A stretch of DNA of 15,279 nucleotides from Candidatus Fraserbacteria bacterium (lineage in GTDB: Bacteria > Bipolaricaulota > Bipolaricaulia > RBG-16-55-9). The notes below the pieces were generated by a model that saw only the letters and a program-made list of their open reading frames with translations, had not been told where the DNA came from and did not search any database. The stretch covers positions 1 to 15,279 of the forward strand of contig JBBIPG010000056.1 in NCBI GenBank assembly GCA_037442925.1. The letters are read 5' to 3'. Shown piece after piece: positions 1 to 15,279 of the stretch (within the stretch, counting starts at the first letter, position 1; each line of letters starts with the position of its first letter). Both the position numbers and the translations under genes were made by a program.

Positions 1-25
1 CTTACCTTACCTTACCTTACCTTAC
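1..25 (+). repeat. (CTTAC)x5 tandem pentamer repeat, truncated by the window edge, followed by CGGT
   Basis: Directly visible: cttac x5 (1-25), then cggt (26-29). Identical to the last 29 nt of the window. Confidence 0.97.
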
Positions 26-49
26 CGGTGGACTTGACGTCCGCAAAAG

Positions 50-57
50 AAGGAGGT
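50..57 (+). promoter_or_regulatory. Strong Shine-Dalgarno (AAGGAGGT) for the CDS at 65
   Basis: AAGGAGGT at 50-57, 7 nt before ATG 65. Confidence 0.85.
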
Positions 58-64
58 AAAAGCA

Positions 65-856
65 ATGTGTTGCGGCAAGGAATCATACGAAGAGGTCAAG
101 GAAGGTCGGGGAGGACTCACGCGCAGAAAGGTGCTGCGGGCAATGGGAGTCGGGACCGGGTTGGTAGCGCTGGGCGGGTTGACGGGGTGTACACAGTTTC
201 TGGATTTGAGTGAAACCGACTCCTTTCAGAATTCAAGTGAAGACCTTCATTCCGCTGCCTTACAGGCAACCTCGAAGATCAGTCCAAAATTGAAGGCTAC
301 TCTCAAGTCTTTAATTAGGCAGTTCAACCAGAAGAGGGGACTAGTTCCACGCGAATGGGTGGCATCATTTGTGCAGAGTGGAACAGAATTGGTCAACGAA
401 ATGGAGCGGGTCGGGTTGGTCGAGGTTCTACAACAATCCGTCAAGCCCAAGGATATCCTGTCTTATCGAGGACCAGAGCCTTCTTTGGTCCAGTATCTGG
501 TACAAGAGTTGTGGTTTGATGAGAACGTTGTAGATCATTGGTTGTCTATGGCTCCCAGACTGCTAATGCAAGTAGCTCGCAAGCTGGAAGAAGTCTCTCT
601 TAAAGAGGTCTTCAAGGAGATGGCCGCTTCCCTCAGAGAATTAGTAACATCCATCTCCAGCAACGGGAATGTTGCAGCTCAATGGCATTGCCCCGATTGC
701 GTATCGGGAGCCCTAGCCCTGAATGGGGTGATGCTGTACGAATTCGAAAACGATTTGTTTCCATTGGTCACAATCATTGTGGGAATAGGCTTTATTCTCG
801 AGTGCAGCACGACTGCCGAGTGGCTTAGGGATCCGATTGGTTGCCGCCAATCATGA
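65..856 (+). CDS. Twin-arginine (Tat) exported lipoprotein of unknown function with a Cys-containing hydrophobic C-terminal region
   Basis: 263-aa ORF with a strong SD. Tat motif LTRRKVL, hydrophobic h-region GVGTGLVALGG, lipobox LTG-C (Cys42). C-terminal 57 aa contain CPDC, two more Cys and hydrophobic stretches. Confidence 0.8.
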   Translation: MCCGKESYEEVKEGRGGLTRRKVLRAMGVGTGLVALGGLTGCTQFLDLSETDSFQNSSEDLHSAALQATSKISPKLKATLKSLIRQFNQKRGLVPREWVASFVQSGTELVNEMERVGLVEVLQQSVKPKDILSYRGPEPSLVQYLVQELWFDENVVDHWLSMAPRLLMQVARKLEEVSLKEVFKEMAASLRELVTSISSNGNVAAQWHCPDCVSGALALNGVMLYEFENDLFPLVTIIVGIGFILECSTTAEWLRDPIGCRQS

Positions 857-1350
857 TCGTTGATATGAAAATAAAGGTACTTGTCCTCTTGAGTTGCGTG
901 GTCTTGATCATCACAGCATTTCCTGTTGCAGCGCACGCACAGAGGCAACCTAGCCATATGCTGTTGCAATTCCTTGCCGGTAGCCTGATGGGGATCATTA
1001 GCGGTCCTGTCATGACTTATCTGGGAGTTTGGCCTATCCCGCATGACCTCCAGGAATGGTGTAGTAGTGGCTTTCTCCGGAGCGCTGGACGTCTTGCGGA
1101 TGCATACGTCGCGATAACCGCAGTGACGGCAGCCGCTGGAGTGCTCGTCTTTAGCAAGCTCACCGGGATGAGAGGGAACGAGCTGGGATTGCTGGTGGGG
1201 GCGATAGTGAGCGCCGTGAGTGGAGGCGCTTTGCCATGCGCAGGCTTGCAACTTGTGCAAGACCCTAGTCAAGCACCACCTCTTCACATCATCCTACCAC
1301 CATTGCTTGCTGCCATGAATGCCACAGTGGGGTATAATAGCTATCCTTAG
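853..1350 (+). CDS. Hypothetical membrane protein (signal peptide plus ~3-4 TM helices)
   Basis: ATG 853 overlaps the upstream TGA (ATGA 853-856); alternative ATG at 865. MKIKVLVLLSCVVLIITAFPVAAHA resembles a Sec signal with an AHA cleavage site, followed by Gly/Ala-rich hydrophobic segments. Confidence 0.7.
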   Translation: MIVDMKIKVLVLLSCVVLIITAFPVAAHAQRQPSHMLLQFLAGSLMGIISGPVMTYLGVWPIPHDLQEWCSSGFLRSAGRLADAYVAITAVTAAAGVLVFSKLTGMRGNELGLLVGAIVSAVSGGALPCAGLQLVQDPSQAPPLHIILPPLLAAMNATVGYNSYP

Positions 1351-1378
1351 CCGATTTTGATGATTTGAGTTCACTGCA

Positions 1379-2077
1379 TTACGCTTCTAAACCCCTTTTC
1401 AGTATCGCCTCTGCCAGCTTAAGATCCCAGGGTGTCGTGATCTTGATGTTCTGAGCTTCACCTGGAACGATCTTGGCTCGGACACCGCTCATCGCTGACA
1501 CCGCTCCCGCCTCATCTGTGAAATAGCGCCCTTGCTTGTGAGCTTCGTCCAGTGCATATCCAAGCAGATCACGCTCAAAGCACTGCGGCGTCTGGGCAAG
1601 ATACAGCATTTCGCGATCCACTTCACCCACGGCAAATCCCTTGCTATCAATAGATTTGACTGTTTCATGAACACGTAGCGCAGGGACTGCCGCCCGATAC
1701 GCGCGGGCTGCGTCAAAGACGGCCTTCAATAATTCCAGCGAGAAGAGCGGCCGAGCGCCGTCATGCACGGCAACCCACTTCGAGCGAACCGCTCGCACCC
1801 CGGCATGAGACGAATCTTGGCGATGTTCTCCCCCCAGCGTCACTTGGATCTTCTTCTCAAATGAAAAAGCATCTAAGATTTTTCTTAGAAGAGGGCGATC
1901 TTCGGGATGAATCACAACGGCGATCTCTGAAATGTATGAGCAGCTAGAAAGTTTGTCGAGGGAATACCAGAGGATGGGTTTACCACAAAGCGGCAGATAC
2001 GCCTTGGGGATGGACGCCCCCATGCGCTCTCCCCTGCCCGCTGCCAGCACGACCACGCCCAGGGTCTCTGGTTTCAT
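1379..2077 (-). CDS. ispD: 2-C-methyl-D-erythritol 4-phosphate cytidylyltransferase
   Basis: Motifs LAAGRGERMG, PKAYL, RQDS, VHDGARP, QTPQCF, TDE, NIKITTPWDL. Start set at ATG 2077 (MKPETLGVVVLAAG). Lies downstream of a PIN/TRAM gene, as in the common yacL-ispD arrangement. Confidence 0.92.
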   Translation of the reverse strand: MKPETLGVVVLAAGRGERMGASIPKAYLPLCGKPILWYSLDKLSSCSYISEIAVVIHPEDRPLLRKILDAFSFEKKIQVTLGGEHRQDSSHAGVRAVRSKWVAVHDGARPLFSLELLKAVFDAARAYRAAVPALRVHETVKSIDSKGFAVGEVDREMLYLAQTPQCFERDLLGYALDEAHKQGRYFTDEAGAVSAMSGVRAKIVPGEAQNIKITTPWDLKLAEAILKRGLEA

Positions 2078-3521: not shown

Positions 3522-4409
3522 ATGGCCAGGGCGAAGACCGACGTCCCAGAATGGACTGTCCGCCGCGTCCTCGACTGGACGGCAGGATATCTACGCCGTG
3601 CCAAGGTGCAGGCCGCCCGGTTCGAGGCGGAAGTGCTCCTCGCTCATGCCTTAAGAACGGAACGCCTGGAGCTCTACCTCCATCCGGAGCGCGTTCTTCG
3701 CCCACAAGAGCGTACCCGCTTTCGAGAGCTGGTGCGACAGCGCCATGCCGGAACTCCCCTCGCGTATCTTGTGGGCACCGTGGAATTCATGAATGTCACC
3801 CTCAAAGTGAACGGCTCCACGCTCATCCCACGCGTGGAAACAGAAGAGCTGGTCGAACGGGTACTGCGAGATCTCGGCACAGCCCCTGAGCCGAAGGATC
3901 TAAAGCTGCTGGATCTGGGCACAGGCTCGGGAGCCATCGCCATCGCCATCGCCAAGGAGTGGCCGCAGGCTCGCGCTCTGGCCGTAGATATCTCTGAGGA
4001 AGCCTTAGCGCTTGCTCGCGAGAATGCCCAACTCAACGGCGTGGCAGAGCGTGTGGTATTCGCCCATTCTGACTGGTTTTCGGTCGTTCAGGGACAATTC
4101 CATCTGATCATCTCCAACCCTCCCTACATCCCCTCGGAAGACCTCAAGACGTTGTCCAGAGAAGTGACGGAGCATGAGCCTACGCGGGCACTCGACGGCG
4201 GCCCACGCGGCCTGCGGGAAATCCAACGCATCGTGCGCGAAGCCCCTCACTTCCTGCGTCCGGGAGGACGACTCTACCTTGAGATCGGCTCTCCCCAAGC
4301 TCAGGACGTATGCAAGCTCATCGAGGAGACATCCGCCTTCTCCCATCTGGAAGTTCAGCGCGATCTGGCTGGTAGAGACCGTTTTGTCCATGCGATTCGT
4401 AGATCGTAA
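3522..4409 (+). CDS. prmC: Peptide chain release factor N5-glutamine methyltransferase (HemK/PrmC)
   Basis: Motifs PLAYLVG, TLIPRVETEELV, LDLGTGSGAIA (SAM binding), ISNPPYI, EPTRALDGG, LEIG, RDLAGRDR. ATG 3522 follows GGGAGG. Confidence 0.95.
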   Translation: MARAKTDVPEWTVRRVLDWTAGYLRRAKVQAARFEAEVLLAHALRTERLELYLHPERVLRPQERTRFRELVRQRHAGTPLAYLVGTVEFMNVTLKVNGSTLIPRVETEELVERVLRDLGTAPEPKDLKLLDLGTGSGAIAIAIAKEWPQARALAVDISEEALALARENAQLNGVAERVVFAHSDWFSVVQGQFHLIISNPPYIPSEDLKTLSREVTEHEPTRALDGGPRGLREIQRIVREAPHFLRPGGRLYLEIGSPQAQDVCKLIEETSAFSHLEVQRDLAGRDRFVHAIRRS

Positions 4410-13098: not shown

Positions 13099-13129
13099 GG
13101 GGGGGGTCAGCTCAGCCCCAGTAGCTCGC

Positions 13130-13864
13130 TCAACCGGCACATCGTCGGCCCAGGTCACTATGGATAACGAGGTCGGCGATGGCATCAAAGGGCGTCGCTT
13201 CACGGTTGATGAGGACGACCCGCGTCTTGGCATATTGGGCCTGCGGGACGAGTCCTGCCACGGGATAGACTTCGAGAGAAGAGCCGAGCACGATCAGCAG
13301 ATCCGCTCGACAGATCTCCCATTCGCTCTCTTGAAATGCGGGAGGCAGAAGCTCTCCAAAGAGCACCACATCAGGTTTGAGCAACCCGTGGCAATGATCG
13401 CAATGGGGCGCTCCCTGCTCTTCGACTTTACGAAACAAGGTTTCGATCTCGTAGGGCTTTCGGCAGTCAATGCAGAGTCCTCGGGTGTAGTTGCCATGGA
13501 CTTCCAGCACCCGTTGCGAGCCCGCCTTTCGATGGAGATTATCGATGTTCTGCGTGATGACCGCCTTGAGTCGGCCACGGGACTCCAGTCGAGCGAGCAG
13601 ACTGTGGGTGATATTGGGCTGAGCCTGGCTCAATCTCGAAAAGCGCCACTTCCAGAACTCATAAAAGCCCACAGGGTCTCTGAGAAAGCCATCGATGGAA
13701 GCTACCTTGAGGGGATCGACCATGCTCCACAGGCCGCATTGGGGGCTGCGAAAATCCGGGATGCCCGATTCGGTCGAGACCCCGGCTCCCGTGAGTGCCA
13801 CGGCATAGCGCGCCTCTTCGATCCACCTCGATAGTTGATGGAGCTTCTCGTTGTGCGTCGTCAT
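13130..13864 (-). CDS. cobB: NAD-dependent protein deacylase (sirtuin, Sir2/CobB family); extreme C-terminus probably frameshifted
   Basis: Motifs GAGVSTESGIPDFR, TQNIDNLH, EVHG, CIDC/CDHC zinc site, KPDVVLFGE, GSSLEVYP, INRE. ATG 13864. Confidence 0.92.
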   Translation of the reverse strand: MTTHNEKLHQLSRWIEEARYAVALTGAGVSTESGIPDFRSPQCGLWSMVDPLKVASIDGFLRDPVGFYEFWKWRFSRLSQAQPNITHSLLARLESRGRLKAVITQNIDNLHRKAGSQRVLEVHGNYTRGLCIDCRKPYEIETLFRKVEEQGAPHCDHCHGLLKPDVVLFGELLPPAFQESEWEICRADLLIVLGSSLEVYPVAGLVPQAQYAKTRVVLINREATPFDAIADLVIHSDLGRRCAG

Positions 13865-13885
13865 ACTTCTCTTGGCTGCAGCGCG

Positions 13886-13915
13886 ATTATAAGCCAGATG
13901 AAAGCTAGAGCGCAA
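13886..13915 (-). promoter_or_regulatory. Putative sigma70 promoter for the sirtuin gene
   Basis: Minus strand: TTGCGC (13915-13910), 18 nt, TATAAT (13891-13886). A divergent TATAAT at 13961-13966 (+) precedes the M24 gene. Confidence 0.5.
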
Positions 13916-14002
13916 GGCTCTTTGAGTGACGGAGAGAATCAATACGAAGAGGCGAAAGTGTATAATCTCGATGTCAAAAGCCTAGTCTACGAGGAGGTCG
14001 GC

Positions 14003-15190
14003 ATGAAATGGCGGATCAGCCTTGGCGAATACGTGCGACGCATTGACCGTGTACGGGAAGAACTTCATAGAGAGAAGGCCCAAGCGATGATCGTCTTTGG
14101 TGCCAAGCGCATCGCATACCTTGTGGGCTACCACATCGTGGCTACAGAAAGACCCATGGCGCTCATCATCCCGGCTAAGCTCAGAGAAAAGCCCATTGCA
14201 TTCGTGCCTCGCTTGGAGAAAGACGCGGCAGAGCACGAGCCTCTGGTAGGCGAAGTGTGGAGTTACTTCGAATATCCCGGCAAAGAGCCTCCCCTCAAGA
14301 CCTTCGCCCAGCTGCTCACCAAGAGAGGATTTGATGAAAAACTCTTGGCGGACGGTGAGGGTTACCCGGCCCTCTGGGGCTATCGGGGTCCGAAGCTCTC
14401 GGAGGTACTGCCTGATACTCAAGTGAAAGTGACTCACTTCATCGAGGAGATGTGGAAAATCAAATCTCCTGAGGAAATCGAACTCATCAAAGAGACGGCC
14501 ATCTGGGGGAATCTGGCTCATGCGAAGTTACAAGAGTTCACTCGCGTCGGGGCCAGCGAGATCGACGTGTCTCTTCGAGCTTCGTACGAAGCCAGCCGCG
14601 AGATGCTCCAAGCACTGGGGCCCGAATTTGGAGGCTTCTCCCGAGGCGGCTGGCCCTGCCATGCTGGCTTCGTCACAGGACCGAACTCGGCATTCCCTCA
14701 CTCGATGAGCTGGAACCGAAAGATTCAAAAGGGCGATGTGCTCGTCACGGGAGCCACAGGGCATCTGTGGGGCTACGCGAGCGAACTCGAGCGGACAATG
14801 ATCGTTGGAGCACCCAGTAGTGAACAAGCCAAGTATTTCGAGATCATGCTCGAAGCACAGACGGCGGCCATGGAAGCCGCCGGGCCGGGAATCCCACTCT
14901 CACAAGTGGATCGAGCCGCGTGGGATGTCTTTGAGAAGCATAAAGTCACGCAATACACACAGCATCACACGGGGCATCATCTGGGTTTTGAGCCACATGA
15001 GGCTCCCTTCATTGATCGCAATAGCAAAGAAGAGATGCAGCCAGGGCAAGTTTATAGTATCGAGCCTGGGCTATATATTCCGGGCAAAGCGGGCTACCGG
15101 CACAGCGATACGATCTTGATCACCAACGATGGAGTGGAGTTGCTCACATACTACCCAAGAGATCTGGAGAGCCTCACGATTCCGGTTTAA
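14003..15190 (+). CDS. M24 (Xaa-Pro peptidase/creatinase fold) family hydrolase
   Basis: Creatinase-N-like N-terminal domain, then IKSPEEIELIKE, SAFPH, HHTGH, HEAP, IEPGLY, RHSDT. ATG 14003 after GAGGAGG. Confidence 0.88.
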   Translation: MKWRISLGEYVRRIDRVREELHREKAQAMIVFGAKRIAYLVGYHIVATERPMALIIPAKLREKPIAFVPRLEKDAAEHEPLVGEVWSYFEYPGKEPPLKTFAQLLTKRGFDEKLLADGEGYPALWGYRGPKLSEVLPDTQVKVTHFIEEMWKIKSPEEIELIKETAIWGNLAHAKLQEFTRVGASEIDVSLRASYEASREMLQALGPEFGGFSRGGWPCHAGFVTGPNSAFPHSMSWNRKIQKGDVLVTGATGHLWGYASELERTMIVGAPSSEQAKYFEIMLEAQTAAMEAAGPGIPLSQVDRAAWDVFEKHKVTQYTQHHTGHHLGFEPHEAPFIDRNSKEEMQPGQVYSIEPGLYIPGKAGYRHSDTILITNDGVELLTYYPRDLESLTIPV

Positions 15191-15198
15191 TAAGGGTC

Positions 15199-15227
15199 TT
15201 GACAAGATGAATCATCTGTGCTACACT
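15199..15227 (+). promoter_or_regulatory. Near-consensus sigma70 promoter with extended -10 and a palindrome in the spacer
   Basis: TTGACA (15199-15204), 17 nt, TACACT (15222-15227), with TG at 15219-15220. AGATGA-A-TCATCT at 15205-15217. Confidence 0.8.
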
Positions 15228-15275
15228 TACCTTACCTTACCTTACCTTACCTTACCTTACCTTACCTTACCTTAC
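15226..15275 (+). repeat. (CTTAC)x10 tandem pentamer repeat followed by CGGT
   Basis: Directly visible: ten perfect CTTAC units (15226-15275), then cggt (15276-15279). Confidence 0.98.
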
Positions 15276-15279
15276 CGGT

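Follow-up and report, generated by a model that had tools for sequence, protein, structure and literature searches.

The (CTTAC)10 array fused to a promoter at the right end of the window (the whole stretch of DNA analysed, 15,279 nucleotides) is the promoter-leader module of one cassette family and not a genome-wide element. We propose, with a probability of roughly 45% that draws on folding models, that the (ACCUU)n RNA of such arrays folds back and masks the Shine-Dalgarno (SD) sequence; a long array would thereby repress translation of the first cassette gene, and contraction would relieve the repression. In a wider form, which we offer more tentatively, the microsatellite itself would be the anti-SD strand, a slippage-prone cis lock copied with a promoter-hairpin-signal-peptide module onto undescribed Tat-lipoprotein toxin cassettes, and contraction would give rise to single-cell toxin producers without a regulator protein or sRNA. 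Beyond the original prediction, our analysis adds the conserved hairpin, the predicted SD pairing and an account of what kind of genes lie behind the array.

The promoter-array module and its contig

The window is the entire contig C56 of genome G000 and carries the following features:

1..25, forward strand: 3' remnant of a second, paralogous array, five units, then CGGT to 29; its promoter is absent from the contig
28..44, forward strand: conserved leader hairpin 3' of the left-edge array, here with a 6-bp stem and a 5-nt loop (folds and consensus structure)
50..58, forward strand: Shine-Dalgarno sequence AAGGAGGTA, with which the array is predicted to pair (sequence and folding)
65..856, forward strand: Tat-signal lipoprotein gene, likely a toxin precursor (MCCG start, twin Arg, lipobox-like GC, helical body, variable Cys-containing hydrophobic C-terminus)
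841..1350, forward strand: small hydrophobic gene, likely an immunity protein, overlapping the end of the lipoprotein gene; no family match at cut-off
1379..1511, reverse strand: 3' end of ispD, junction of the left-edge cassette; contig C67 of G000 has the same 105 bases, then an nth-like gene
13835..15190, forward strand: M24 peptidase gene, pepP-like, housekeeping (Pfam PF00557/PF01321), behind which the cassette is inserted
15199..15204, forward strand: -35 box TTGACA (sequence); the same box occurs in the spanned copies G000 C45, G006 C7, G006 C31 and G008 C49
15219..15227, forward strand: extended -10 box, TG-n-TACACT, with TG at 15219-15220 and TACACT at 15222-15227; the overlap with the array recurs in the same spanned copies
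15226..15275, forward strand: (CTTAC)10 array; about eight units predicted to be transcribed from A15234 and to base-pair with the SD and first codons of the gene that follows
15276..15279, forward strand: CGGT, start of the conserved leader hairpin, then contig end; likely continuation on the minus strand of G000 C47

The TTGACA box, the extended TGcTACACT and the ten perfect CTTAC units followed by CGGT that the original prediction had described are all present at 15199-15227 and 15226-15275: the boxes are separated by a 17-nt spacer and match the consensus at 10 of 12 positions, with TG, the last two bases of the -10 box are the first two of the array, and TRF finds 10.2 copies with a 100% match, giving ten units as assembled. 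The array begins at 15226, downstream of the -10 box and not in the spacer, as had been pointed out, and with +1 placed seven bases 3' of the -10 box the transcript is predicted to start at A15234, after a T, with eight ACCUU units as the RNA 5' end. A two-unit CTTAC pattern has 13 matches in the window, where 0.28 are expected from shuffles. Perfect repeats of at least 20 nt are a rare class in G000 (nine rows, five with the CTTAC unit), and a tandem repeat stands behind only two of its 136 TTGACA-N16-18-TAnnnT sites, both times a CTTAC array. A second perfect pentamer array, (GCCGA)7 at 61539-61573 of G000 contig C3, lies in the gap upstream of a minus-strand gene which we take to be cupredoxin-like.

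The first 29 bases of the window are identical to its last 29, and contig C47 opens, on its minus strand, with the same 29 bases. The ends of C56 are identical because the assembly breaks inside the CTTAC repeat; public contigs break at 15216-15279, and none spans the window array. These breaks at both ends might suggest an assembly or library artefact, which is nevertheless extremely improbable, since spanned copies in four genomes (in G000 C45 and three others, with unique flanks) speak for a genuine array, and only the exact count of ten remains exposed to this explanation. The unbroken copy on C45, with both flanks, reads TTGACA-17-TATCCT, 11 units, hairpin, strong SD and gene. Upstream of its promoter lie some 100 bases from the 3' end of pepP, in a stretch of 195 nt that is 80% identical to window 15087-15276, and this pepP remnant therefore indicates that the promoter-leader module was copied as a block.

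Both arrays of the window are cut. The same array had been seen earlier at the other edge of the window, in front of a gene; the five units with CGGT at 1-29 and the gene behind them are indeed there, but the locus is a different, paralogous one. A circular contig or excised element was considered and rejected: the end identity reflects the break in the repeat, C47 shares the 29 bases, the contig holds housekeeping genes and synteny leads to C47; an end-to-start joint of C56 was absent among the matches listed. In genome G006 the pepP orthologue runs straight into genes which we take, from their translations, to be trpB-, trpA- and aroK-like, with no cassette between, and in G000 C47 the order is array, family gene, two small membrane genes, CAAX-like gene and the presumed trpB-trpA-aroK. 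Because the synteny of C47 and C56 matches that of G006 and the 29-mer is shared, the right-end array most likely continues into C47, which thus most likely holds the gene that it serves. This family gene is frameshifted: a stop follows codon 73, and the reading resumes in a different frame, which is 74% identical over 300 aa to an intact homologue.

The left-edge cassette sits at the ispD-nth site; a 10-unit cassette occupies this position in G006, and G001 shows the ispD-nth order without one. Contig C67 is a probable empty-site allele, and cassette-bearing and empty ispD-nth alleles (C67 1-105) probably occur within one population. In run X1 the left-edge cassette (window 91-1442) lies on a contig with a depth of 8, compared with 15 elsewhere, a depth that is not a cell share. 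The same run differs from the window by one-base indels at 13099 and 13148 and by substitutions at 4167 and 4169, possibly assembly errors or strain differences.

Array loci and the cassette family

A three-unit CTTAC pattern is present in 5 of 184 phylum genomes. Counting the C56 end and C47 as one, we found 11 array loci: eight lie before a family gene, one (G008 C49, mixed CTTAC/CTTGC, with the same promoter and hairpin) before a homologue of the second cassette gene, and two (G000 C9 and G127) are unrelated and outside cassettes. The original prediction had suggested a search of the assembly and its relatives and had expected a dispersed element family; the array does recur, and at 9 of the 11 loci it is associated with cassettes, yet it stands not before unrelated genes but in the leader of one cassette family, to which it is linked in four genomes, in counts that are not independent because the genomes are kin and cassettes may move sideways. 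The promoter-fused copies have 3, 7, 7, 8, 10, 10 and 11 units, so that unit number varies from 3 to 11 between paralogues and genomes; a carbamate-kinase-like gene is upstream both of the 11 units of G000 C45 and of the 7 units of G006 C31. The earlier suggestion of a length-variable leader thus finds its counterpart in a promoter-array unit that recurs with 3-11 units, with an effect on expression that is predicted only. The promoter-fused arrays may have a single origin.

The family was delimited by a profile search with the N-terminal region in 35 genomes of the order. Of the 70 rows obtained, 17 are strong loci (E<=4.4e-11); the weaker ones, probably other Tat proteins, were left out. Eight of the 17 loci have at least three pure units, two have short or impure remnants and seven have no array, and an array or remnant occurs in 10 of 13 MCCG-type loci vs none of four non-MCCG loci. 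Intact family genes without array are found in G005, G008 C38, G015 and L097, and at all three loci with impure or two-unit arrays (G004, the start of G006 C31, G008 C49) the lipoprotein gene is broken or missing. In G024, from another family, 5-6 units lie 200 nt upstream of the family gene, with unrelated flanks. The leaders of G000 and G006 are nearly identical; among G000, G008 and G024 spacers and hairpins differ, with the unit unchanged.

In a species collection, 14 promoter-plus-array matches were obtained, of which 10, outside the phylum, have other spacing and no family gene; the records include Ca. Fraserbacteria and Ca. Bipolaricaulota. A metagenome scan with protein alignment retained three loci from 371 candidates, two apparently the G008 loci and one without array, and the viral contigs searched gave 0 matches. 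A 13-base hairpin-junction pattern gave mostly scattered matches in the 35 genomes, with no new G000 place among the matches listed.

Several further repeats were seen around these loci. At G000 C9 (L070 1502-1526), with a tyrosine-integrase-like gene on one side, a convergent gene on the other and a tRNA-like stretch close by, five CTTAC units that are not promoter-fused drift into CTTTC and CTCTC. Seven loci in three genomes (L056, L057, L059-L061, L063 and L064, Gastranaerophilales-type) have TTGACA, 13 bases, (CTTAC)3-5 and a fixed tail upstream of opposite-strand prepilin-like genes. The non-MCCG homologues L035 and L039 carry poly-T in the -35/-10 spacer (9 T in 14 nt and 8 T in 17 nt), and these spacers of 14 and 17 nt resemble the classical off and on states; the tracts are consistent with a family under selection for variable expression. 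At G000 C43 (244-2348) a small gene separates two non-MCCG family genes in tandem, and a single CTTAC occurs in a pyrimidine-rich stretch directly before the first SD.

Leader folding and alternative explanations

A hairpin follows the array in all promoter-fused copies (folds and consensus structure); its alignment has 76% of cells paired and a covariation of 0.315, with 3 of 500 shuffles as high, for sequences that are related and with one of six pairs mis-set. RNAalifold places array-SD pairs around this hairpin, and the last array units are predicted to fold round it onto the SD. Two-sided changes are confined to the hairpin (two pairs), and the array-SD helix has one-sided A-to-G changes in four pairs. 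A compensatory array/SD change in G004 and G024 was considered and rejected, as the unit is untranscribed and pairing is not predicted there. Rfam covariance models at five loci (E<=1) left the leader unmatched and hit only rRNA genes beside G008 C49.

In the proposed lock, UACCU-UA-CCUU of the array would pair with AAGG-AGGUA at the SD, and spare units would pair with AAGG-rich first codons. For the window locus, folding pairs the SD to the array with a probability of 0.93 at 37 C, where opening the SD costs 7.7 kcal/mol, and of 0.83 at 70 C, where it costs 3.8 kcal/mol. With 45 nt of coding RNA, SD pairing is at most 0.03 at 2-5 genomic units, 0.43 at 6, 0.81 at 7 and 0.93 from 9; when the hairpin is shuffled (n=100) the pairing is modestly lower, 0.78, at 5.6 +/- 1.7 kcal/mol. 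The occlusion threshold depends on how much RNA is folded: it is 3-5 units when only the leader is included and 7-10 with 70 nt of coding RNA, so the switch would lie anywhere from about 3 to about 10 genomic units. Should the low value be correct, the natural arrays exceed it by far, and single slips would have little effect. Array-SD pairing without coding RNA is predicted in all seven promoter-fused leaders at five or more units, the SD of G006 C31 is open at its natural seven units in the longest fold, and in G024 the pairing is 0.0 at 37 C, contrary to the SD-masking model. The array-SD duplex (-8.6) is weaker than the SD-16S duplex (-14.0). Slippage would alter array length within populations, and with a putative bacteriocin-like toxin as the first gene product the lock would allow a strong promoter to stay active with little expression of the costly first gene.

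Among 204 pentamer classes ACCTT ranks first for SD occlusion (mean of three related leaders), and it is also first among six classes of the same composition, of which ATCCT and ACTCT rank 32 and 27. For the leader alone it ranks 1, 1, 1 and 17 of 204 in four array leaders, the firsts being G000 C47, G006 C7 and the more distant G008 C43, and 4, 1 and 1 of 204 in three array-less family leaders, in the last with a lead of just 1.6 kcal/mol. When coding RNA is included and 30 preselected units are compared, its ranks at eight array genes are 1, 1, 1, 1, 2, 15, 22 and 27, the low ones belonging to G006 C21 (15), G006 C31 (22) and G024 (27); in this comparison it comes first at 2 of 22 GGAGGT controls sampled from 104 and at none of 22 other controls sampled from 254. 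Among 29 preselected classes, its rank at 21 control AAGGAGGT sites lies between 1 and 16, with a median of 6. Array pairing with the RBS regions of seven promoter-fused genes is beaten by only 1-6 of 358 control RBS regions; the corresponding figure is 94 of 358 for G024, 20-97 for five non-array genes and 3 of 358 for the array-less L097, and synonymous-codon shuffles do not separate array from non-array genes. In these models hardly any pentamer could mask the family SD better than ACCTT, in an SD context that is older than the array. The complementarity of array and SD does not demonstrate co-evolution, because ACCTT suits any canonical SD and because the array-less leaders and L097 show it too.

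The array could instead serve a protein, which we consider unlikely, either as a multi-site operator for an OmpR/PhoB-type repressor that would bind CTTAC at 10-bp steps over +1, or as an RNA track for an S1/Csp-type binder, with occupancy set by array length. The original prediction had already considered a helically phased DNA-binding array, and one helical turn does correspond to two units, with the array spanning the predicted +1, but unit counts of 3, 7, 8, 10 and 11 follow no parity rule, no recurring regulator gene lies beside the array loci examined, and an operator would leave the top SD-occlusion rank of the unit unexplained. TRAP, which the original prediction had named as an example when it suggested a track for an oligomeric RNA-binding protein, recognises (G/U)AG triplets with 2-nt spacers on RNA. 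The ACCUU RNA lacks such triplets and PF02081, whose model recovers rings in B. subtilis, was not found in G000 (94% complete), which speaks against this candidate. A protein track would accommodate G024, where the unit is kept 200 nt upstream without predicted SD pairing, and S1, Csp and Csr have been suggested for the leader repeats of Beggiatoaceae (PMC4679880). It is likewise improbable that the array is a neutral slippage product with a single origin behind the -10 box, copied with the promoter-leader-signal-peptide module as cassettes duplicated and moved. The block copying evident from the pepP remnant of C45, the near identity of the G000 and G006 leaders, the intact array-less family genes (G005, G008 C38, G015, L097) and the two arrays outside cassettes (G000 C9, G127) would all fit a passenger; the rarity of perfect repeats of at least 20 nt in G000 and the purity of the arrays, the constancy of the unit while the spacers and hairpins of G000, G008 and G024 differ, and the coincidence of impure arrays with broken or missing genes in 3 of 3 cases argue against it.

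An action on transcription seems quite improbable as the sole explanation: a TACCTT ladder every 5 bp might cause sigma-dependent pausing, a process treated in PMC3326312 and PMC10937400, or the G-free, C-rich RNA might load Rho, which is encoded in G000. TACCTT has T, A and T in common with the -10 consensus, and one copy lies at about -1 to +5; lacUV5 pauses on a -10-like element at +1 to +6 (PMC3326312). In G006 C21, whose native -10 is deleted, a TACCTT stands 16 nt from the -35 box; for Rho, a title in the reference list of PMC12360218 refers to a polypyrimidine repeat as Rho terminator. TACCTT, however, has only three of six consensus bases and no TG, and TAnnnT occurs in 60 of 204 pentamer classes and is therefore unspecific. 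The 81-nt leader is predicted to be largely paired, and a short, paired leader is, given the requirements of rut sites, a poor loading site for Rho. Pausing or Rho loading could add to SD masking instead of replacing it.

Related systems and the cassette proteins

SD masking as such is familiar from fourU thermometers and from translational attenuators of the ermC/cat type, in which a pyrimidine-rich leader segment masks the SD. The CTTAC leader differs in that the masking segment is a length-variable tandem repeat, with no leader peptide or alternative structure found, and in that the predicted pairing persists at 70 C (0.83). For repeats between promoter and start codon, uspA1 and uspA2 are given as the experimentally studied cases as of 2015, and the copy number of Moraxella catarrhalis uspA2 (AGAT)n and uspA1 poly-G is described as varying by strain and affecting expression (PMC4679880). 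Like these, the CTTAC leader has a perfect short-unit tandem repeat between promoter (+1 predicted) and the start codon of an exported protein; unlike them, its pentamer begins inside the -10 box, is common to paralogues, is predicted to pair in cis with the SD and belongs to an uncultured environmental lineage. The G-repeat of Helicobacter pylori tlpB pairs length-dependently with the sRNA RepG (PMC8295292), a likeness in that leader repeat length grades expression via RNA pairing (predicted only for the CTTAC array), but there the partner is a trans sRNA and the repeat its target, whereas the CTTAC repeat is the predicted cis anti-SD strand. Short tandem repeats before start codons are also known from the uncultured Beggiatoaceae, where TAACTGA occurs at 169 sites before unrelated genes, mostly without SD, and a translational role was proposed (PMC4679880); the CTTAC array goes with a single gene family, whose SD is strong. 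In the literature, with subscription sources poorly covered, the matches listed included no tandem repeat acting as a cis anti-SD and nothing on a CTTAC repeat or on bacteriocins of the Bipolaricaulota phylum.

Studied leader repeats come from a few host-adapted pathogens and act via transcript level or a trans sRNA; a self-masking repeat, if true, would connect DNA slippage with a translational switch that needs no regulator, here in an uncultured, free-living lineage, and the 81-nt leader could serve as a tunable part. The loci also bring to light a family of exported and probably antagonistic proteins that is unannotated in the Bipolaricaulota phylum. The proteins at the C56 start, C45 and C47 have about 45 N-terminal residues in common (MCCG, twin arginine, lipobox-like GC) and then diverge. 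Family proteins are mostly of 250-360 aa and helical, with variable, hydrophobic, Cys-containing C-termini, and small membrane genes follow; broken and orphan copies are common. The TIGR01409 Tat signal is above cut-off in 2 of 14 scanned proteins and weak in 4 more, and weak in the left-edge copy; one member (G028) has a PT-HINT domain (E 1.7e-17), and the gene at the position of 841..1350 is SdpI/YfhL in G024 (E 7e-15). The second gene of the left-edge cassette overlaps the stop of the first and is therefore a poor fit with independent immunity expression. A recognised toxin domain was absent from every scanned family member, and the AlphaFold model of the lipoprotein (mean pLDDT 48.7) is too poor for a fold search.

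By analogy, the family likely represents bacteriocin-like toxin-immunity cassettes that work like halocin C8 or polymorphic toxins. The halocin C8 precursor is Tat-exported, 250-350 aa long and has a C-terminal Cys-rich peptide (PMC3387779), and models and alignment place a Tat signal and a Cys-rich hydrophobic C-terminal peptide in our family as well; the likeness extends to the variable C-termini, the small membrane genes, PT-HINT and the SdpI neighbour, and the constant N-terminal export region, variable C-termini, adjacent small genes and orphan or broken cassettes are features of polymorphic toxins. The family differs from halocin C8 in its lipobox-like cysteine and in the lack of a model match (NCBIfam at E<=1 for 14 proteins, Pfam at E<=0.5 for 21 proteins); a language-model lead to halocin was weak (0.79). 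In L036 (622-1881) and L097 (2094-3219) a C-terminal HINT-type domain lies after, not before, the hydrophobic Cys segment, and a signal-peptidase-like gene follows L036. The array-less homologues L038, L041 and L099 each have, directly upstream, what is presumably a Crp/Fnr-like regulator gene, and two of these upstream genes end in a 10-base run of C or G.
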